Shown: positions 1,157 through 46,171, counted from the stretch's first letter. The stretch is 64,000 nucleotides of DNA from Thermoplasmata archaeon (GCA_022749815.1 JAKIWV010000003.1:158048-222047); one strand, 5' to 3'. Notes: generated by a model not told the origin, from the sequence alone. Program-made: numbers and translations.

Positions 1157-2590
1157 CTACAGAGTTTCGTCGTCGGATTTCCTTGACGAGCGGCGCTCGG
1201 AGCGGCGGTGGAAGAGTCCTCTGGATTTCCGTACAGCCGGGCGGGGTCGCCCTCGGGCTCGGGCGGACGGGGCACGTTTCCTGGTCAACGGGTGAGGGTG
1301 GCCGCTCGGGTGCCTGCGGGGGGAGGGGGGTTCTTCCTCCGGCTCCTGCGGGGCCGCGAGCCAGGCGCGAAGACCTTTCCAGCGGCTCCCTTTGGGGCGC
1401 TCTCGCCATTCGGGTCCGTCGTCGTCCTCTTCGGCCTCTTCGTCCTCCTCATCGGCCTCCGCCCGCTCCTCGGCTAGGCGGCGAGGATCCTCGATGCCCT
1501 CGACCCGGAACAGGTAGTGGAGACCGAGGCCGGCGAGGACGATGGCAGAGAGCGTCAACGCCAGGAACTGCCAGGATTGGGGAGGCACCTGCACCGCGTT
1601 GCCGTCGACGAGGAGCTTGAACGAGCCCACCCACGGGAGCATCCCGCGGGCCGCCCCCACGACCCAGTCTCCCATGACCAGGGCCGAGATGCCCGAGACC
1701 TGGTCGATCTCGCCCTGGGCCGGAGTGCCGGAAACGACGTTGTTGTCCCCCATCGTGATGAACCCGGAGTAATGGCTCAGCCCTCCGAGGGGGATGGACA
1801 CGGACGCGTCCTGCCATCCCACGTGGAACAGGGTGACCGTGCTGAGAATGCCCTGGGAGTTGGTGGACAGGCAGCCGTTCCCGGTTCCGGCCACGGAGTA
1901 GAGGGCGTTCGGGGCCGACCCGCACGGGAGCCCGAAGAGCGCCGGCGCGGAAAAGTCCCGGTTCGTCGCATTCCAGAATAGGAACAGGACGGCCCGATGG
2001 ATTACGGGCGTCACCGAAGAGTCGCCGTTGGGATGGTAGAGGAGGACGTCACCGTATTCGCCGTAGGTACTGTAGCCGGAGTGCTCGCCGGCCACGTACG
2101 GCACGATCGCCGAGGGATCGATCTTCTTCACCAGGACCAGGTCCCCCGTGTTGATGATCCCTACCACGTCGCCCGAACCGTGCTGCATGCTGCCGGATTC
2201 CACCACGAAGATCGGGGGCCAGTTCGAGGTATAGGCAAAGAGAGAGACGAGCAGTAGCACGATGATCGCCAAGGCGACCAGCGGCTCGAAGTACCAACTG
2301 TCCCGCGCCCGGAAGAAGACCGGCCGGCGGAGAAAGCGCATGAACCGCTGAACTCCGCCGCCATACTCTTTCTGATCCCTTTCCACGGCCGCCAGGTCGT
2401 CCTCCTCGTCATCGAGGTCGGAAACGGTCCACGGTCGCACCGCGCCTCGGCCGCGGGACCGGCGGCTCCGCGCCGCCCGCCGTCGGGGCGGGGGAGGCGC
2501 TTCCACCTCCTCTTCCTCGTCGTCGAGTTCGTCCTCGTCGAGGTCGGGGTCCTCGGCGTCCGTGTCGGTCGACCCTCCCCTTCGAACCAT
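1157..2590 (-). CDS. signal peptidase I (S26B/Sec11-like) with acidic N- and C-terminal extensions
   Basis: Catalytic box IFVVESGSMQHG after a TM helix; second TM near the C-terminus; poly-D/E tracts at both ends; start uncertain. Confidence 0.7.
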   Translation of the reverse strand: MVRRGGSTDTDAEDPDLDEDELDDEEEEVEAPPPPRRRAARSRRSRGRGAVRPWTVSDLDDEEDDLAAVERDQKEYGGGVQRFMRFLRRPVFFRARDSWYFEPLVALAIIVLLLVSLFAYTSNWPPIFVVESGSMQHGSGDVVGIINTGDLVLVKKIDPSAIVPYVAGEHSGYSTYGEYGDVLLYHPNGDSSVTPVIHRAVLFLFWNATNRDFSAPALFGLPCGSAPNALYSVAGTGNGCLSTNSQGILSTVTLFHVGWQDASVSIPLGGLSHYSGFITMGDNNVVSGTPAQGEIDQVSGISALVMGDWVVGAARGMLPWVGSFKLLVDGNAVQVPPQSWQFLALTLSAIVLAGLGLHYLFRVEGIEDPRRLAEERAEADEEDEEAEEDDDGPEWRERPKGSRWKGLRAWLAAPQEPEEEPPSPRRHPSGHPHPLTRKRAPSARARGRPRPAVRKSRGLFHRRSERRSSRKSDDETL

Positions 2591-2617
2591 GCAGGTCCGG
2601 CGGACCGATTCGGCTTC

Positions 2618-3325
2618 TTAGCTCTTGGTCTCTACCCGAATCGAGGGCCCGATCGTGACCCGAACCGCTCCCCGCACGAGGAGTGCGGCGGCGATGAAAA
2701 GGGGCAGCAATACGAGGTCGCTTCCCGGCCAGTGGAAGCCCAAAGTCTCCCCCGCCCAGAAGACCGCGAAGGTAAACAGCAGAGCGGTCGCGGCGGTCTT
2801 CAAGGCGGGGATTTTGATGCGGCGGATCTGCCCGTGGAGCATCACGGCGAGCCCAACCAGCAATGCACCGGCCGCGAGGGCGGCGACGAGCGCCGTGAAA
2901 CCGTAGCCCGGGGCGGCCAACGCGAGGAGCACGATGACGGCCTCGGTGGCCTCGACAGCGCCCACGGAGAAGCCGCTCCCGAACTGCACCACTGGGTGAG
3001 GCTCCGGAGCAGGACCAGCGCTGCCGGAAGCCGCTTGAGCGCGGCGGTACGAGCGTACGGTGCTCTGGAAGAGGAACACGCCGAACGCGGCCAGCACGAC
3101 GGCGGACGGGCCGAGTACGTATGTCGAGGGAAGCCGTTCAACGGCGGCGCCCGCCACGAGGGCAATGGCGGCTACGAGCGCGGTGCCCGAAATCGCGCCC
3201 CAGACCGCCGTCCGAAGCCCACGGGCCCCGCCGCCCAGCGCGAAGACGAGCGCGACCACCTCGGTCATCTCGAGGAGGACAATGAGGAACGCCGGGACGA
3301 ACACCGGCGCGTAGAGCAGGCTCAC
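2618..3325 (-). CDS. polytopic membrane protein with duplicated ExxE motifs (LEMTEV / VEATEA), possibly an FTR1/EfeU-like permease
   Basis: About 7 hydrophobic helices; two internal repeats each carrying E-x-x-E within a TM; start set at an in-frame GTG (an ATG at 3268 is an alternative). Confidence 0.45.
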   Translation of the reverse strand: MSLLYAPVFVPAFLIVLLEMTEVVALVFALGGGARGLRTAVWGAISGTALVAAIALVAGAAVERLPSTYVLGPSAVVLAAFGVFLFQSTVRSYRRAQAASGSAGPAPEPHPVVQFGSGFSVGAVEATEAVIVLLALAAPGYGFTALVAALAAGALLVGLAVMLHGQIRRIKIPALKTAATALLFTFAVFWAGETLGFHWPGSDLVLLPLFIAAALLVRGAVRVTIGPSIRVETKS

Positions 3326-3399
3326 GAAAGACCCGACAGAGCCGCATCTTTTAATGCCTCTCGGTCTCGATGGAAAGATAGGGGGCGGAGGTGCCACCG

Positions 3400-4032
3400 A
3401 TGAGCCGGACCTACGACATTACGGCCGACCTACATCCGGGAATGGCGGCGTTCCCGGGCGACCCCCCGATCACGGTCCGACCCACCCACTCGTTCGCGAA
3501 AGGGGACCCCTACAACCTCTCGGAGTTGTCGATGGGCACCCACGCGGGCACCCATATCGACCCGCCCCGACACTTCCTGCCGAACGGTCTCACGGCGGAC
3601 CGGATCGACCTCGAAGCAATCAACGGCCCGTGTCGGGTGGTTCACATCCCCGATTCCCACCGGGAAGTGAGCACTGGCGACCTGAAGGGGCTGCTCCACG
3701 GGGTCTCGCGTGTGCTGTTCCGGACCCAGAACTCGGTGCATTGGGCCCGTGACGAGGGGTTCTTTCCCGACTACGTGGGCCTCGCCCCCGAAACGGCAGA
3801 GTATCTCGCCGCCGCAACGTTCCGGCTCGTTGGCATCGACTCCCAGTCCATCGAGCGGGACCCGACGGGGCAGTATCCCGTCCACCACACGCTCCTCGGG
3901 AGCGGCTGCCTGATCCTCGAGGGGTTGAGACTCGCCGAGGTGCCCCCGGGAGAGTACGAGCTGAGATGTCTTCCGCTCAAGCTCCGGGACGGCGACGGCG
4001 CGCCCTGCCGGGCGATCCTCGTCGCCCCCTGA
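3400..4032 (+). CDS. cyclase family protein (kynurenine formamidase-like, PF04199)
   Basis: HxGTHxDxPxH signature present (MGTHAGTHIDPPRHF). Confidence 0.7.
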   Translation: MSRTYDITADLHPGMAAFPGDPPITVRPTHSFAKGDPYNLSELSMGTHAGTHIDPPRHFLPNGLTADRIDLEAINGPCRVVHIPDSHREVSTGDLKGLLHGVSRVLFRTQNSVHWARDEGFFPDYVGLAPETAEYLAAATFRLVGIDSQSIERDPTGQYPVHHTLLGSGCLILEGLRLAEVPPGEYELRCLPLKLRDGDGAPCRAILVAP

Positions 4033-4533
4033 GGACGTGGAGTGCCCTCGAATCCTTTCTCTTCCGCGGGGAACTTGGGTGCCCTTACGTGGACCGGTCT
4101 AGGCCGCTACCCCCTGCCGCTCGACACGTGGGCGTTCGCGATCCTGCTCGGCGTCCTAGGTCTGCTCGCCGCAAGTATCTCGTCCTCCGGTTCCAGCATC
4201 CGACCGGTCGTGGCTGGGTCCTAAGCTACCTCCAAGCGGTCGGCGTAACCGCTGCATTCTTGGTCACCGGCGTGTTCTTGGTGGTCTCTCTCCACCCCCT
4301 CGACCCCTTCGGCCACCGGGCCGTCCCGGCGGTCAATCGAACGGGGCCGATGGCTTCGGGCTCGCTCTCGCGGTCCCGGTCCTCACCGTCGATAGCTCGG
4401 TTCAGAGTCGTACCGGTGGCGGAGTTCCGTGGAGGCGCCCCTCGGTCGTCGTCTCGGTGGCGATGCTATTCGCGTTTTTCAGCCACTACTATCACTACGG
4501 AATCCCGGGTCCCTAGCCCTGGTCGCCCGCAGC

Positions 4534-4716
4534 CTAGTCCCGCTCGTCCGGCGGCAGCAGGTTAGGGATGCCGTCCTCTATCGGGTATTCGGTGCCGCAC
4601 TTGGTGCAGGTGAGCACTCCTTCGACGATCTCGGGCCCCTCGGTCTTCCGGGTCGTGAGCTGGAGGTCCGCGCGGCAGAGGGGACAGCAGAGGATCTCCA
4701 TCAGGTCGGGCTTCAC
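4534..4716 (-). CDS. Trm112-family zinc-ribbon protein
   Basis: MKPDLMEILCCPLCRADL...CTKCGTEYPIEDGIPNLL; its ATG overlaps the aIF2-gamma stop as ATGA. Confidence 0.65.
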   Translation of the reverse strand: MKPDLMEILCCPLCRADLQLTTRKTEGPEIVEGVLTCTKCGTEYPIEDGIPNLLPPDERD

Positions 4717-5948
4717 TTCGCATCCCCCTCGATGATCCCGTGACCGATAAGTCGCCAGGCGTTAAACTTCCGGGAGATCGCGACCCGGCTCCCTGGAAAG
4801 ACAGTGACCGGCCGGGCGAGATGGATCTCGATCTCGTCGCCCCGAGCGCTCGTGACCTTGCCGGGCGCGACCGTCGTCCCGACGTTGAGCGATACGAGCT
4901 CGTTGGAGCGGATCTTTTCGACTTTCACCTCTTTCTGGACGCCGACGACCCGGTCCAAGAGCGTCACATTGACCCGTACCTTCTGGGTTACGGGTGGAAG
5001 CGTTTCGGTAGTGCCGATGAGCCGGCCCATGAGCGCGTCGGCTTTCGTGTACGAGGGGTCGAGTGTGGTCCCAACGGCGGCGAGCCCGCCCGGGTGAAGC
5101 TCCTCGAGCTCGTTCCCGCCGGAGACGAGCGACGTGATCTCGGTGTGGATCTCCGAGGGGTGGCCGTCGGTCGCTCCCGTGAGCCCCGGCCGGAGCTCGA
5201 TCTCGTCGCCGACCCGGAGCCGCCCCTGGAGCAGCGAGCCGCCGAGGACGCCGCCTCGGAGGTCGCCGGGCCGCGTTCCCGGCTTGTTCACGTCAAAGGA
5301 CCGCGCGATGTACATGAGGGGCGGCTTGGAGGCGTCGCGCCGCGGAGTGGGGATCGTGCGCTCGATCGTGTCGATGAGGGCATCGATGTTGACTTTGTGG
5401 TTGGCCGAGATCGGCACGATCGGAGCGCCTTGAATCGGGCTGCCCTGAAGGAATGTCGTGATCTGGCGGAAATTCTCCATCGCTTGTTCGGCCGTCAGGA
5501 GGTCGATCTTGTTCTGGACCACCACGACCTTTCGGACGCCGATGATGTCGAGGGCGTACAGGTGTTCCCGCGTCTGGGGCTGGGGCACTGGTTCGTTGGC
5601 CGCGATCAGCAGGAGGGCTCCGTCCATCAATGCCGCCCCCGACAGCATCGTCGCCATCAGGGCTTCGTGGCCGGGTGCGTCGACGAAAGAGACGGCGCGG
5701 ACGAACTTCGCCTCGTCGCCGCAGATCGGGCACCTCGGTTCGACCGTGTACCCCGCGGGCGCCTCGTGCTTCGGGCACTTGTAGAACGCGGCGTCCGCGT
5801 AACCGAGCTTGATCGAGATGCCCCGCTTCAGTTCCTCGGAGTGGCGGTCGGTCCATTCGCCGGTGAGGGTCTGGGTGAGGGTGGTCTTTCCGTGGTCGAC
5901 GTGGCCCACGAGACCGATATTGACCTCGGGTTGCTTGGGGACCCTCAT
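4713..5948 (-). CDS. eif2g: translation initiation factor aIF2 gamma subunit
   Basis: GHVDHGKTTL G1 motif, zinc knuckle CPKH...CPICG, DAPGHE, NKIDL; 411 aa from Met182 of the long ORF. Confidence 0.9.
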   Translation of the reverse strand: MRVPKQPEVNIGLVGHVDHGKTTLTQTLTGEWTDRHSEELKRGISIKLGYADAAFYKCPKHEAPAGYTVEPRCPICGDEAKFVRAVSFVDAPGHEALMATMLSGAALMDGALLLIAANEPVPQPQTREHLYALDIIGVRKVVVVQNKIDLLTAEQAMENFRQITTFLQGSPIQGAPIVPISANHKVNIDALIDTIERTIPTPRRDASKPPLMYIARSFDVNKPGTRPGDLRGGVLGGSLLQGRLRVGDEIELRPGLTGATDGHPSEIHTEITSLVSGGNELEELHPGGLAAVGTTLDPSYTKADALMGRLIGTTETLPPVTQKVRVNVTLLDRVVGVQKEVKVEKIRSNELVSLNVGTTVAPGKVTSARGDEIEIHLARPVTVFPGSRVAISRKFNAWRLIGHGIIEGDAK

Positions 5949-6325
5949 CAAGCAGCCGTCAGGAGCTCCGCGAGAGGCTTCGAGCCCTTGGCCTCGACGG
6001 CCAAGTTGACCTGAACCGTGTCCTCGCTGATGGTGTTCCCCCGGAAGGTGCGTCGCTTCCGCATGCCGCGGCGCGGCGCGTGGAACCCAAGTCCGTCCCC
6101 CACCAGCACCCGCATTTGACGCGCGCCCGGAAGATCCGGCCGGAGGGGAAAGCCGCTCTTGTCGGTCCCGCCCGTGATCTTCAACGTGTAGCCGGGCAGT
6201 CCGAGGGCATCTCCCCCGACCGTTTCCCCGATGCGCCGGCCCAAGAGAGCGGAGACCTGCGCGTCCGCAATGGTGCGGGCGTACGATTTCTCCTTCTCGG
6301 AAATCACGGCTTTGAACTCGACCAT
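5948..6325 (-). CDS. rps6e: 30S ribosomal protein S6e
   Basis: ITGGTDKSGFPLRPDLPG ... MRKRRTFRGNTIS; its stop overlaps the aIF2-gamma start (ATGA). Confidence 0.9.
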   Translation of the reverse strand: MVEFKAVISEKEKSYARTIADAQVSALLGRRIGETVGGDALGLPGYTLKITGGTDKSGFPLRPDLPGARQMRVLVGDGLGFHAPRRGMRKRRTFRGNTISEDTVQVNLAVEAKGSKPLAELLTAA

Positions 6326-6363
6326 CGTCCTCAGAACGGAGCGGGGCGGCCAGCAGGGGGCCG

Positions 6364-6370
6364 TTTAAAA
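6364..6370 (-). promoter_or_regulatory. TATA-like box (TTTTAAA on minus strand) ~39 nt upstream of the S6e ATG; GAGG SD-like element 4-7 nt before the ATG
   Basis: Only AT-rich heptamer in the divergent intergenic region 6326-6475. Confidence 0.35.
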
Positions 6371-6475
6371 GCGTGTCGTGGCGCGATGGAGCGCTATCGA
6401 TAGAAGCGGTCCGCCCGGGCCCGGTCCGCCCTCCCCTCTTAAGTGCCGGGCGTCTGCTCACGCTGTCCGACCGTA

Positions 6476-7396
6476 ATGCTCTCCATCCCACCGACCGCGC
6501 TGTTCGCCGCCGAGGCCATGATCCTGCTCGGAGGTCTCGGATTCGCGGCGTACCAGGATTGGAAACTTCGCGAAGTCGCCGACGAGATTTGGCAGGGCAT
6601 GGCAGTGCTCGGCGCCGTCGTGGGCTTCCTCGCCTTCTTGGGTAACTCCCTCGCGCTGTTCCTCTGGGCGCTGGTGAGCCTGTGGGTGTGGGAGCATCTG
6701 TTTCCCTGGGATGCGGTGCTCGAGAAGTACCCGGAGCGACTCCCCGGGGCGATCGAGATCGGGATCTACGTGGGGGTTCTCGCCGTCCTGATCGCGTGCG
6801 CCCTGGCGTTCGGCGTGGGCGGGACCGGAGTCCCCGTCGCGATTCTCGCCGTCGCCGTCTCGATCCTTCTCGCCCGAGGGCTGTTCGAAGTGGGGGTCCT
6901 CTACGGAGGCGCGGACGCGAAGGCCCTGATGGTGGCTGGGCTGTTGTTGCCCCTCGATTCCATGCCCCTGTGGTCTCCGTCGACGATCACGCCACTTCTC
7001 GCGTACTACCCATTCGCCCTGACGCTCCTCATCGACGCGGCGCTCTTCGCCGTCGTCGTTCCCATCGCGATCGCCCTACGGAACCTCTCGGTCGGCGAGT
7101 TCACGTTCCCCCGTGGTTTCACTGGATACTATATTCCGGTCGGGGAGCTCCCCCACCGATTCGTCTGGATCAAAGACCCGACGTTCAACGGGACCCCCGC
7201 CTCCGAAGAACCCGAGCCGCAGACCACGGAGGAGGACCGGGAACTCCGCCAACGTCAGGCCGATGAGCTCGCCAAGCAGGGGGTGAACCGGGTCTGGGTC
7301 ACCCCCCAGCTGCCGTTCATTCTCTGGATCCTGGCGGGCGCGGTCGCGGCGCTCATTGCCGGGAATCTAGTCTTTGACCTCGTCGGCGCGCTCTAG
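6476..7396 (+). CDS. archaeal prepilin/preflagellin peptidase (A24 family, FlaK/PibD-like)
   Basis: Polytopic membrane protein with the conserved GGADAKAL aspartyl-protease motif and an upstream Asp (YQDWK). Confidence 0.7.
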
Positions 7397-7457
7397 GCCG
7401 GACGAGGAGGTCCGGAAACCTTTTTGTCTCGGCGACCGACTGTATCGCGGGCCACCG

Positions 7458-7877
7458 ATGTCGCCGTCCGGTTCCGCAGGACCCATTCGAGTGTTGATCG
7501 CGAAGCCCGGGCTCGACGGGCACGACCGGGGGGCCAAGGTAGTCGCCCGCGCCCTTCGGGACGCCGGCATGGAGGTGATCTATGCGGGCCTGCGCCAGAC
7601 GCCGGAGGAGATCGTCGAATCGGCATTGGAAGAGGACGTACGCCTCATCGGTCTCTCGATCCTCTCCGGTGCGCACATGGCCCTCTTTCCGCGAGTGCTG
7701 GCCTTGCTGAAGCAGAAGCGGGCTACTCGAATCCGGGTCTTCGCCGGAGGGATCATTCCGGACGAGGATGCGAAACGACTCAAGAAGATGGGAATCCGGG
7801 CGATCTTCGGCCCCGGCGCCTCGCTGGACGAGATTGTTGCGACGGCCCGGAAGATCGCGGGGCCGTCGCGTACATGA
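7458..7877 (+). CDS. methylmalonyl-CoA mutase small subunit (B12-binding domain)
   Basis: [33 protein letters not shown]...GGIIP; classic cobalamin-binding DxHxxG. Confidence 0.8.
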
Positions 7878-8845
7878 ATCGGCGGGCACCGGCACCACTC
7901 CCGGACGCGGCGCGTCGGGTGCTCCGGGGGGACCGGCAGGCCCTCGCGCGTCTCATCAGCCAGGTGGAGAACCGTGACCGTTCCGTTTTACCGGCCGTTC
8001 GGGCGCTGTACGCTCGCTCGGGCCACGCCACCGTGGTCGGCCTCACCGGACCATTGGGCGTCGGAAAATCGTCCATCCTCAACCTCCTGCTCGGGCATCT
8101 GCGGGCTCTGCGGAAACGCGTCGGGATCGTCGCGGTGGACCCCTCGAGTCCGTTTTCCGGGGGGTCGATCCTCGGGGACCGGATCCGTCTCGAACGGCCG
8201 GCCGGGGACGATGGCGTGTTCATCCGGTCGATGGCCGCCCGGGGCCACGCGGGGGGGGTGGCGCTCGCCACCCGGGAGACGGTGCGGCTCCTCGACGCAT
8301 TCGGCATGGAGGTCATCTTGGTAGAGACGGTGGGGAGCGGGCAATCGGATGTGGAGATCCACGAGGTCGCGTCGACGAGCGTGGTGGTCGTGGTCCCACA
8401 CCTCGGCGACGATGTTCAGTCGATGAAAGCCGGCCTCTTCGAGATCGCCGATGTCTTTTGTGTCAACAAGGCCGACCTGCCCGGAGCCGATTCCGCGGCG
8501 AAATATCTGACGGAGATGACGCAGCTCGGGGTCGCGAAAGGACGCTGGCGCCCTCAGGTGATCCAAACTTCCACGACCCCCCCGCGCGGTATTTCGGAGC
8601 TCTGGGAGGCGATCGCAGCCCACGAGGCGTACCTCGATTCCAGCGGTTCTCGCCGAGGGCAGGACCGACAGCGCCTCACCGGCGAGATTCTCGGACTCGT
8701 TCGCGAACGGGTCGATGCGTCACTGGCCGCGGCCCTCGAACGGGACCCCGACCTGCAGGCCGTCCTCGACCGCGTGGTGGCCCGAAAGATCGACCCTCAT
8801 ACGGCGGCGGATCGACTACTCGCCGCGGTCCGCCGCCCGAAGTAG
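7874..8845 (+). CDS. meaB: methylmalonyl-CoA mutase-associated GTPase MeaB/ArgK (G3E family)
   Basis: [13 protein letters not shown]-loop, [14 protein letters not shown]; ATG overlaps the preceding stop (ATGA). Confidence 0.85.
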
Positions 8846-10702: not shown

Positions 10703-11581
10703 TCACGACTTCGTGATGGCGCCGGGAACCGATGCGTGGGCGGACCCCTCGTGCGCACCCTTCGAGTGCGCCGCCTTCTCCTCGGCACTCCCCGTCGTTG
10801 GGGCGGGAGTGGCTTCCTCGGTCTTTTCCGCGGCCGCCTTGGCCTCCTTTGGCGTCGGCGTCACGTACTCCTCGAGAAAGCGGATCGATTTGGGGTGCAG
10901 GTGGCTTCGGAGGCGCTCGATGAGTCGGGACTTGGCCGCTGCGTGCCAGGCGAGGTCGAACTTGGCCCGGTCGGGTAGCGTGACCGAGAGCACCTTTTCG
11001 TGCATCTCGATGGTGAAATCCTTTCCCCGACCATAGGTGAGATCGACCAGGGCATGCGCCTTCGCGACCGGGTCTGTGATCGCTTCCACGACCTTGAACT
11101 TGGCGTGGATCTTTCGCCCCGCGAAGGGCGGGTTGAAGTCGACACGGACCCGGGCCGCCGTGTATCGCACCACACGTCCGCGCCGGCCTTGAATCGTCAG
11201 AGCCGTCCCGATCTCGAGCTCGGCATCCTCGCGACGCATCTCGGGGAGCCGCTCGATCTCGTGCATCGAGAAGAGCTCGATCAACTTCGGGTCCCGCTCG
11301 CCGAATGCCTCCGCCGGCGCGAGCTCCTTCTCGATCTCGTGGCCCACTGGGGCCCCGGCGATCGCGGCCTCGAGGGCGGCCGGGAAGTCGTCGCCGCCCA
11401 CGATGTGGGGACGAGGTCCGAACTCGTAGCCCGAGGGCAGGCTGAAGTCCTCCTTCTGCGCAACCTCGGCGCGGGACGTGTCGATGAGCTCGTTCTTGCC
11501 GCCCGACTCCGTCCACAACTCGTAGTCGAGGAGGACAATATCCCCGCTCTTGGAATGGCCGGCCCCGGCGTGCTCCGACAT
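10703..11581 (-). CDS. FKBP-type peptidyl-prolyl cis-trans isomerase (archaeal long FKBP with IF insert)
   Basis: GDIVLLDYELWTE...ELIDTS FKBP core, insert-in-flap region and a Lys/Ala/Glu-rich tail; 292 aa from the internal ATG. Confidence 0.75.
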   Translation of the reverse strand: MSEHAGAGHSKSGDIVLLDYELWTESGGKNELIDTSRAEVAQKEDFSLPSGYEFGPRPHIVGGDDFPAALEAAIAGAPVGHEIEKELAPAEAFGERDPKLIELFSMHEIERLPEMRREDAELEIGTALTIQGRRGRVVRYTAARVRVDFNPPFAGRKIHAKFKVVEAITDPVAKAHALVDLTYGRGKDFTIEMHEKVLSVTLPDRAKFDLAWHAAAKSRLIERLRSHLHPKSIRFLEEYVTPTPKEAKAAAEKTEEATPAPTTGSAEEKAAHSKGAHEGSAHASVPGAITKS

Positions 11582-39267: not shown

Positions 39268-39377
39268 GGGCCTGTAGCTTAGCCGGGACAAAGCACTGGC
39301 CTTCTAAGCCAGCGAACTCGGGTTCAAAGGTCGGGGGGAAGTGACCTTCCCCCCGACGGAAACTCCCGACAGGCCCG
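39268..39377 (+). tRNA. tRNA-Arg (anticodon TCT) with ~35-nt intron inserted in the T-loop (non-canonical position ~59/60)
   Basis: Acceptor GGGCCTG/CAGGCCC, U8A9, D-arm GCTT-AGCCGGGACA-AAGC, anticodon arm CTGGC-CTTCTAA-GCCAG, V-loop CGAAC, T-stem TCGGG...CCCGA with T-loop TTCAAAG interrupted by a 12-bp GC hairpin plus GGAAACT. Confidence 0.55.
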
Positions 39378-45855: not shown

Positions 45856-46171
45856 GGCCGGCCGACTCCCGAACTCGTATAAGGTCTTGGTCCCCCATGT
45901 CGTCCGAAGGGTTCGACACCCATCGAAATCTCCCCCGAGAACGAACTCGGAAAAGGGAGTGGACCGGGCGAGAACTTCCGGCCCCGGGGGGCGGGCCCCT
46001 GAGCCCTTTGAACTCGCGACCTCTACCTTGCCAAGGTAGCGATCTTCCGCTGATCTACCGGCCCACGGGGGCGGCGGAGGGTCGCTGGAGAATAAGCTAT
46101 TCGCTGACGAGCACGGGACCGGGAGCAGGCAGGAAAATGTTAATGCGGGCGAGGCCCGTCCGCGCCTACCG

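Follow-up and report, generated by a model that had tools for sequence, protein, structure and literature searches.

A tRNA-Arg(UCU) gene with a predicted near-canonical intron in its T-loop, and related 59/60 introns in GC-rich Thermoplasmata

At 39268-39377 of the window, a stretch of 64,000 nucleotides from a Thermoplasmata archaeon that we analysed as a whole, what reads as a tRNA-Arg(UCU) gene is interrupted within the T-loop by an insert holding a GC-rich hairpin. Is this a tRNA gene whose transcript loses an intron at an unusual site or a tRNA-like sequence that keeps its insert, and what does the site say about the host and its splicing endonuclease (EndA)? Position 59/60, where the insert lies, is a listed non-canonical tRNA intron site (PMC4090602), and Euryarchaeota with an alpha4 or alpha'2 EndA have been reviewed as carrying single introns at 37/38 only (PMC4090602).

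All elements of a tRNA-Arg can be read directly on the plus strand at 39268-39377, where the first-pass annotation had placed them:

39268-39328, plus strand: exon 1, tRNA positions 1-59, from the acceptor 5' strand to T-loop U54-A59
39268-39274 and 39370-39376, plus strand: acceptor stem, GGGCCTG and CAGGCCC, read directly
D-arm, plus strand: TA, then GCTT-AGCCGGGACA-AAGC, then A, read directly
39303-39305, plus strand: anticodon TCT, within the anticodon arm CTGGC-CTTCTAA-GCCAG, read directly
Variable loop, plus strand: CGAAC, read directly
39318-39322 and 39365-39369, plus strand: T-stem, TCGGG and CCCGA, read directly
39323-39328 and 39364, plus strand: T-loop, TTCAAA and T, read directly
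39329-39363, plus strand: predicted BHB (bulge-helix-bulge) intron of 35 nt between tRNA positions 59 and 60, placed by ARAGORN on the spliced form and by homologues
39364-39377, plus strand: exon 2, comprising U60, CCCGA, CAGGCCC and discriminator G73 (39377)

The gene starts 25 nt past the stop codon of an Endo_dU gene, and CCA is not encoded in exon 2. Exon 2 is a single copy within the 64-kb window, on which ground we rejected an att-site duplication there. A covariance-model search, one of the checks proposed by the first-pass annotation, was positive over the 5' two-thirds of the gene: the Rfam tRNA model scored 35.5 bits, above the gathering score of 29, aligned only 39268-39326 and mis-paired the 3' end by forcing a false acceptor 3' strand. 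ARAGORN, the other gene finder run, gave a divided answer. It called no tRNA in the window, nor on the tRNA-Arg locus in intron mode, and it returned tRNA-Arg(tct) once the insert had been removed in silico. The reading of the locus as tRNA-Arg(TCT) stands. The pre-tRNA, taken as a 113-nt stretch, folds at -59.8 kcal/mol (z = -4.75, with 0 of 200 shuffles as low), and the fold contains the acceptor stem, the T-stem and the hairpin.

The window is 63-71% GC throughout and its genes are archaeal, among them the Endo_dU/DUF99 gene directly upstream of the tRNA and genes for ribosomal protein L3, DUF835, a thiolase and DnaK. The tRNA-Arg exons are identical or near-identical to those of L067, L085 and L105, which are MAGs of the study that described Lutacidiplasmatales, a soil order of Thermoplasmatota with ~69% GC and genomes of ~2.1 Mb (PMC9287336). 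Judged from these sequences, the host is related to the Lutacidiplasmatales genomes that carry the same intron. The first-pass annotation had described such intron sites as known mainly from a few crenarchaeal lineages; the host here is not a crenarchaeote but a Thermoplasmata, and hence euryarchaeal, MAG of ~67% GC.

An archaeal BHB runs, along each strand, from an outer helix through a 4-bp central helix and a 3-nt bulge to the next helix, and EndA cleaves it after the second nucleotide of each 3-nt bulge. Laid out by the definition of this 3-4-3 motif (PMC3239211, PMC5829648), the junctions of the window intron read as follows:

39330-39357, plus strand: intron helix h', GTCGGGGGGAAG (39330-39341) and CTTCCCCCCGAC (39346-39357) around the loop TGAC, from the minimum free energy fold
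39323-39326, plus strand: exon strand of the central helix H, U54 U55 C56 A57, facing GGAA at 39358-39361
39358-39361, plus strand: intron strand of the central helix H, G G A A (intron nucleotides -6 to -3), from the alignment
39327-39329, plus strand: 5' splice-site bulge, A58 A59 / G, with a cut predicted from BHB geometry at 39328/39329
39362-39364, plus strand: 3' splice-site bulge, A C / U60, with a cut predicted from BHB geometry at 39363/39364

The intron sequence is G, then GTCGGGGGGAAG-TGAC-CTTCCCCCCGAC, then GGAAAC. The hairpin, a perfect 12 bp, extends from intron nucleotide 2 to 6 nt short of the intron 3' end; the 35-nt insert with its 12-bp hairpin was found at 39329-39363 exactly as first described. 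In the window the central helix consists of U54-A, U55-A and C56-G, with A57·G as its sole non-Watson-Crick position. The outer helix h is the 5-bp T-stem, and h' is a hairpin of ~8-12 pairs across loci (12 in the window). The 3-4-3 spacing is exact in all 20 Arg loci that we aligned and in the Ala, Ser and Leu examples described below. Throughout, three of the four central-helix positions always pair; at the fourth, A57 faces G (A in one locus) and is never in a standard pair. The A57·G purine-purine mismatch arises because a purine is obligatory at position 57 while a G is maintained on the intron side. RNAfold alone misses the short central helix in most of the sequences.

A relaxed motif is one in which a bulge is missing or replaced by a loop, and here both 3-nt bulges and both flanking helices are present. 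The first-pass annotation had held that an intron at 59/60 needs a relaxed BHB substrate. That expectation finds no support for this intron, whose junctions can be laid out as a 3-4-3 hBHBh' motif with one non-Watson-Crick position, which on the aligned sequences we class as near-canonical, not strictly canonical. The layout closely resembles that of a canonical 37/38 intron, which also has a 5-bp stem and a 7-nt loop, follows the sixth loop nucleotide, pairs four loop nucleotides with the intron 3' tail and presents two 3-nt bulges, but which sits on the anticodon arm where the window intron sits on the T-arm. By tRNA numbering, 59/60 lies between the sixth and seventh positions of the loop in such a 5-bp stem and 7-nt loop, so the intron would copy the canonical 37/38 geometry.

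Other kinds of functional RNA were considered for the insert and rejected. Box C/D guide RNAs, known within archaeal tRNA-Trp introns, have conserved C (RUGAUGA) and D (CUGA) boxes; the inserts here are 30-35 nt long, and in both loop and helix their sequences differ from locus to locus. Group I and group II self-splicing introns have a catalytic RNA core of hundreds of nucleotides, against an insert of 35 nt, and the Rfam intron families gave no match in the window at E <= 1.

A search of one genome per species by a pattern made of the anticodon arm plus TTCAAA, which is blind to the intron, returned at least 119 loci. Among the matches listed, an insert of 30-35 nt at 59/60 is present in 17 genomes, every one of them with a Thermoplasmata label, Ca. 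Lutacidiplasma silvani included. In the other lineages among the matches listed the T-loop is uninterrupted, L091 being left out here. The T-loop is likewise uninterrupted in L036, L038, L065 and L077 (Aciduliprofundum), which are labelled Thermoplasmata and have different tRNA bodies. Two relatives whose Endo_dU is 84-86% identical keep the arrangement of Endo_dU and tRNA-Arg (synteny in L001-L003), with the intron at the same nucleotide and the hairpin sequence changed.

An alignment of 20 sequences, comprising the window, the 17 species genomes and the two syntenic loci, separates what is conserved in this gene from what is free to vary. Exon 1 is nearly invariant, and the acceptor, D, anticodon and T helices are paired in 100% of cells. 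The intron hairpin shows changes on both sides in 11 of its 12 pairs, mostly from G-C to C-G. Over the whole stated structure, 92.5% of cells are paired compared with 84.8% in shuffles, 14 pairs are changed on both sides compared with 8.3, and the covariation score is 0.213 compared with 0.095; none of 500 shuffles reached the observed score or the observed percentage of cells paired. Sliding the partners by 1-3 columns lowered pairing from 92.5% to 33-52%. That the exons are near-invariant while the hairpin undergoes compensatory change indicates selection on both intron structure and exon sequence, and argues against a pseudogene.

The junctions show a similar division across the 20 Arg loci. 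Opposite U54 and opposite U55 stands A or G, and opposite C56 always G, while A57 is always opposite a purine and never paired; the consensus of the intron strand in all Arg, Ala, Ser and Leu examples is [G/A]-G-[A/G]-[A/G]. The third nucleotide of the 5' bulge is G in 18 of the 20 and A in the other two. The last two intron nucleotides vary (AC, AG, AT, CA), U60 is invariant, and the predicted mature loop UUCAAAU is the same in every homologue.

The window contains another interrupted tRNA gene, on the minus strand:

45960-46064, minus strand: tRNA-Ala(GGC) with G3·U70 and A73, from a sub-threshold Rfam match and manual reading
46064-46007 and 45973-45960, minus strand: its exon 1 and exon 2, read manually
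46006-45974, minus strand: its 59/60 intron of 33 nt, GGGCTCAGGGGCCCGCCCCCCGGGGCCGGAAGT, inserted after TTCAAA

The Rfam match covers 46064-46009 (minus strand) at 24.8 bits and came from a relaxed search, below the gathering score. ARAGORN missed the gene on genomic sequence and called tRNA-Ala(ggc) after splicing in silico. The intron follows the same plan as that of tRNA-Arg: G, hairpin, GGAA, and two nucleotides before U60. Both tRNA genes found in the 64-kb window thus carry a 59/60 intron, and a structural regular expression run on the window gave no further candidates. A tRNA-Ala with a 28-32-nt intron also occurs in L011, L136, L188 and L196, syntenic with the window. The metagenome Ala loci, also syntenic with it, have 72-92% protein identity, and in L011 (contig JBAWFC010000081.1) the intron-bearing Arg and Ala genes stand together as they do in the window.

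The metagenomes were scanned by junction pattern. GG after AAA and CGGARACTC at the 3' junction were fixed in that pattern, so the uniformity of the metagenome junctions at these positions is partly circular, and the unbiased examples are the Arg set, the window Ala gene and the Ser genes of L243-L248. The scan gave at least 120 loci, and among the matches listed the T-stem pairs in 44, of which 38 are tRNA-like at 64-76% GC and six are low-GC noise. The 38 comprise 21 Arg(TCT) genes and one broken copy, three Ala(GGC), one Ser(GGA), five Ser(CGA), four Ser(GCT) and three Leu(TAG). After splicing in silico, GC-rich metagenome examples of all six tRNA species were called correctly by ARAGORN; run with -i on the GC-rich loci, the program reported spurious kilobase 'introns', which we disregarded. 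Ser or Leu 59/60 introns were found on the GC-rich soil and peat contigs L156, L159, L161, L219, L221, L223, L177, L180, L192, L197, L123, L142 and L185.

For tRNA-Ser(GCT) the intron was confirmed in named Thermoplasmata assemblies. The only named relatives of the L192 thiolase, encoded beside tRNA-Ser(GCT), are labelled 'Thermoplasmata archaeon', and a search by thiolase synteny, blind to the intron, found tRNA-Ser(GCT) with a 31-32-nt 59/60 intron in L243-L248, for example:

L243, 11466-11573, minus strand: tRNA-Ser(GCT) with a 59/60 intron
L247, 3467-3581, minus strand: tRNA-Ser(GCT) with a 59/60 intron

Assembly DASPQC01 holds an intron-bearing Arg gene (L023) and an intron-bearing Ser gene (L247) in the same MAG. 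The examples found without reference to the intron vary at the junctions, with G or A as the third bulge nucleotide and AC, AG, AT, CA, GT or CG as the two 3'-bulge nucleotides. For Ser(GGA), Ser(CGA) and Leu, assignment to the lineage is circumstantial, resting on GC content and intron style. The Arg intron of the window is, on this comparison, best read as one of a lineage family of 59/60 introns that takes in Ala(GGC), three tRNA-Ser species and Leu(UAG). In L185 an intron-less tRNA-Gln(CTG) stands beside the tRNA-Leu, so not every tRNA of these genomes is interrupted.

The tRNA-Leu(TAG) genes of L142 and L185 (minus strand) are interrupted a second time, in the D-loop at 21/22, by an intron of 27 or 24 nt. 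Its tail GGCU is paired with G18 G19 C20 C20a, an inner hairpin is present as well as a well-formed 5' bulge, and the 3' site falls within a 6x3 internal loop; as modelled, the motif looks like a relaxed BHL or HBh'-like one. With both introns removed, ARAGORN called tRNA-Leu(tag).

We regard 39268-39377 as very probably a functional tRNA-Arg(UCU) gene of a GC-rich Thermoplasmata archaeon, with a protein-spliced BHB intron at 59/60. Its processing, from the cuts and enzymes to splicing itself, can be predicted from the geometry. In the precursor the T-stem would act as the outer helix h, U54-U55-C56(-A57) would face the intron tail GGAA as the central helix, A58 A59 / G and A C / U60 would form the two 3-nt bulges, and the 12-bp GC hairpin would be the inner helix h'. 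Cleavage by EndA would follow the second nucleotide of each bulge, at 39328/39329 and 39363/39364, and an RtcB-type ligase would join the exons into a 75-nt tRNA with the T-loop UUCAAAU. T-loop folding and modification would become possible after ligation, and CCA would be added.

Were the insert retained, the locus would be a pseudogene or would yield a tRNA-like RNA whose T-loop arm is enlarged, and AGA would have to be decoded via another gene. The failure of both ARAGORN and Rfam to recognise the full gene fits such a locus, as does a metagenomic copy (L127) plainly broken by an IS element. A decaying gene, however, sits badly with exons that are near-invariant, and four cloverleaf helices that are fully paired, in 20 loci; the insert varies freely in sequence and yet keeps both its helix and a tail that pairs with U54-C56, and the same architecture is seen in six tRNA species. 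A 30-35-nt arm within the T-loop would also block the T-loop/D-loop elbow of established tRNA structure. Retention is therefore very improbable in our judgement. The hairpin might, alternatively, be primarily a DNA or RNA signal, such as a terminator for Endo_dU or a protein-binding site, that lies in a tRNA gene by chance. It is very stable, and the tRNA begins only 25 nt past the Endo_dU stop, but no T-run follows the hairpin, its position is fixed to the nucleotide relative to tRNA numbering, and the same T-loop design occurs in Ala, Ser and Leu genes with unrelated neighbours; the chance that it is such a signal is close to negligible.

It is also very improbable, to our mind, that the BHB intron lies in another register, such as 58/59, or has a relaxed 4-3-4 or BHL junction instead of 3-4-3. 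On paper the run AAA / G ... AAAC / U permits alternatives, ARAGORN accepts the 58/59 product UUCAACU too, and A57·G weakens the central helix. Only 59/60, however, sets the hairpin directly after one 3-nt bulge and the other 3-nt bulge directly before the T-stem, and it yields the invariant UUCAAAU in every locus and tRNA species despite the variable last two intron nucleotides, whereas 58/59 places a G·G clash at position 1 of the inner helix. The evidence favours what had first been proposed, a non-canonical T-loop intron at 59/60 with the GC hairpin as its own helix.

Introns of this kind have precedents outside Thermoplasmata. In ARMAN-2 (Candidatus Micrarchaeum acidiphilum), pre-tRNA-Cys(GCA) and pre-tRNA-Pro(GGG) are interrupted at the same 59/60 site by introns of the same protein-spliced class (PMC3239211), and tRNA-Pro(GGG), which has introns at 53/54 and 59/60, has been described as having the strict hBHBh' motif (Fujishima et al. 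2011, PMC3239211). In ARMAN-2 the tRNA-Cys intron measures 13 nt, has a relaxed hBH/BHL motif and is cut by a three-unit epsilon2 EndA with a specific loop (PMC3239211). The introns described here are 30-35 nt long with a long inner helix and 3-4-3 spacing, and the host is a Thermoplasmata archaeon. BHB introns outside 37/38, those at 59/60 included, likewise occur in Thermoproteales, other Crenarchaeota and Thaumarchaeota (PMC4090602, PMC8450103; earlier work by Marck & Grosjean 2003 and Sugahara 2008 is reviewed there). As here, crenarchaeal and thaumarchaeal genomes have similar introns in several tRNA species, with two in some tRNAs (PMC8450103). Those lineages combine many intron positions with an (alpha-beta)2 EndA that has a specific loop (PMC4090602, PMC8450103), whereas our host is euryarchaeal and the examples found concentrate at 59/60, with one case in the D-loop at 21/22. 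Methanopyrus kandleri pre-tRNA-Glu(UUC) is another euryarchaeal non-canonical intron, in a host whose EndA is without a specific loop (PMC5829648); it is a relaxed HBh' motif in the D-loop, processed by an (alpha-beta)2 EndA, unlike the near-canonical T-loop intron of the window (Kaneta et al. 2018, PMC5829648).

The type and position of the intron are therefore already known, and what is unexpected is its recurrence in several tRNAs of a Thermoplasmata lineage. We found no report of such introns in Thermoplasmata or Lutacidiplasmatales in the literature that we searched, and they go unmentioned for Thermoplasmata in the papers searched on Lutacidiplasmatales, Methanomassiliicoccales and tRNAscan-SE 2. 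A conserved family of T-loop introns in a Thermoplasmata lineage departs from the 37/38-only rule for Euryarchaeota.

The first-pass annotation had expected the intron to be informative about the type of endonuclease. With a near-canonical motif in a euryarchaeal host, the intron alone does not indicate one. EndA of the alpha4 and alpha'2 types needs the strict 3-4-3 motif, and (alpha-beta)2 and epsilon2 enzymes with a specific loop accept relaxed motifs (PMC3239211, PMC5829648). A canonical BHB is cut by all EndA forms regardless of the mature domain, and the homodimeric Ferroplasma enzyme cleaves minimal BHBs set in hairpin loops (PMC8707768). Given this general activity on canonical BHBs, the near-canonical motif on the T-arm would by itself call for no special enzyme, and position alone demands no broad-specificity EndA when the T-arm can copy anticodon-arm geometry.

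The EndA architecture, which had been named as a further check, could not be read from the window: phmmer searches with M. jannaschii, A. fulgidus and M. kandleri EndA sequences found no EndA in the six-frame ORFs of the window or of any intron-bearing locus. An EndA profile led to two-repeat alpha'2 proteins of Methanomassiliicoccales, and a profile of these to 150 representatives, mostly of 340-380 aa. One of them, P0409 (354 aa), represents a cluster of 46 members named 'tRNA-intron lyase [Thermoplasmata archaeon]', whose genes lie on contigs of 69.5-70.5% GC (L252-L267, e.g. L258 10001-11065). Further candidate genes are:

L249, 5601-6674: candidate EndA gene
L251, 10001-11125: candidate EndA gene

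The candidates share a conserved neighbourhood (CarS-like, phosphoribosyltransferase, EndA) and a Pfam architecture of N+C, N+C, that of the two-repeat alpha'2 type. Compared with Sulfolobales alpha subunits they are without the 11-residue specific-loop insert (GISKPKSAEEI), and the catalytic Tyr, His and Lys are kept in the C-terminal repeat. The candidate EndA loci have no assembly and no genes in common with the intron-bearing loci, and no tRNA was found at them; their link to the intron lineage is circumstantial, by class label, GC content and sample series. The related 357-aa EndA in L249 lies ~4 kb from a tryptophanyl-tRNA synthetase gene. A 184-aa ORF beside the tRNA-Ser of L243, considered as a divergent EndA, was rejected because it matches Hjc resolvase above the Pfam cut-off.

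Tentatively, and with more doubt than confidence, we raise the possibility that in GC-rich soil Thermoplasmata near Lutacidiplasmatales 59/60 introns have spread to at least six isoacceptors, with a relaxed D-loop intron in at least one tRNA, and are processed by an alpha'2 EndA without the known specificity loops. If true, the alpha'2 reading would break the accepted pairing of a 'narrow' EndA with canonical-only introns, and the lineage would be a simple test system for the co-evolution of intron position and EndA architecture.

When annotated without a BHB-aware tool, genomes of this lineage will seem short of tRNA-Arg(UCU), tRNA-Ala(GGC) and a number of tRNA-Ser and tRNA-Leu genes. The archaeal mode of tRNAscan-SE 2 was built for such introns, so existing annotations may already hold them unremarked. 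On unspliced loci ARAGORN can report a 76-92-nt 'tRNA-Arg' that borrows intron sequence for its 3' half, as it did in L012, L016, L023, L026, L030, L039, L073, L081, L085, L096 and L105. In L243 the tRNA-Ser gene (11466-11573, minus strand) shares its 3' end with a recorded ORF of 125 aa, ChsH2-like, at 11131-11508. Elsewhere in the window, a match to the Guanidine-II (mini-ykkC) riboswitch at 4316-4361 (minus strand) reached 25.8 bits, below the gathering score of 32 (E = 0.45), and is probably due to chance.

Several tRNA-Arg(TCT) genes met in the scans are, or may be, interrupted in other ways. In L127 (~2400-8131) the variable loop of the gene is broken by an element with a DDE_3 transposase gene, imperfect terminal inverted repeats and a TA duplication. 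Exon 2 (TCCCGACAGGCCCG) is present in three direct copies, at 8124, 6341 and 2422, which bracket an island of 55-58% GC in a background of 70% GC; from its sequence this looks like an integration into the 3' exon of the tRNA gene. The tRNA-Arg(TCT) of L091 (Woesearchaeota) has lost its 3' half right after TTCAAAT, and those of Bathyarchaeia in L007, L047, L055, L057, L063, L071, L074, L084 and L094 have non-tRNA sequence at the D-arm, suggesting other kinds of interruption in these two lineages.
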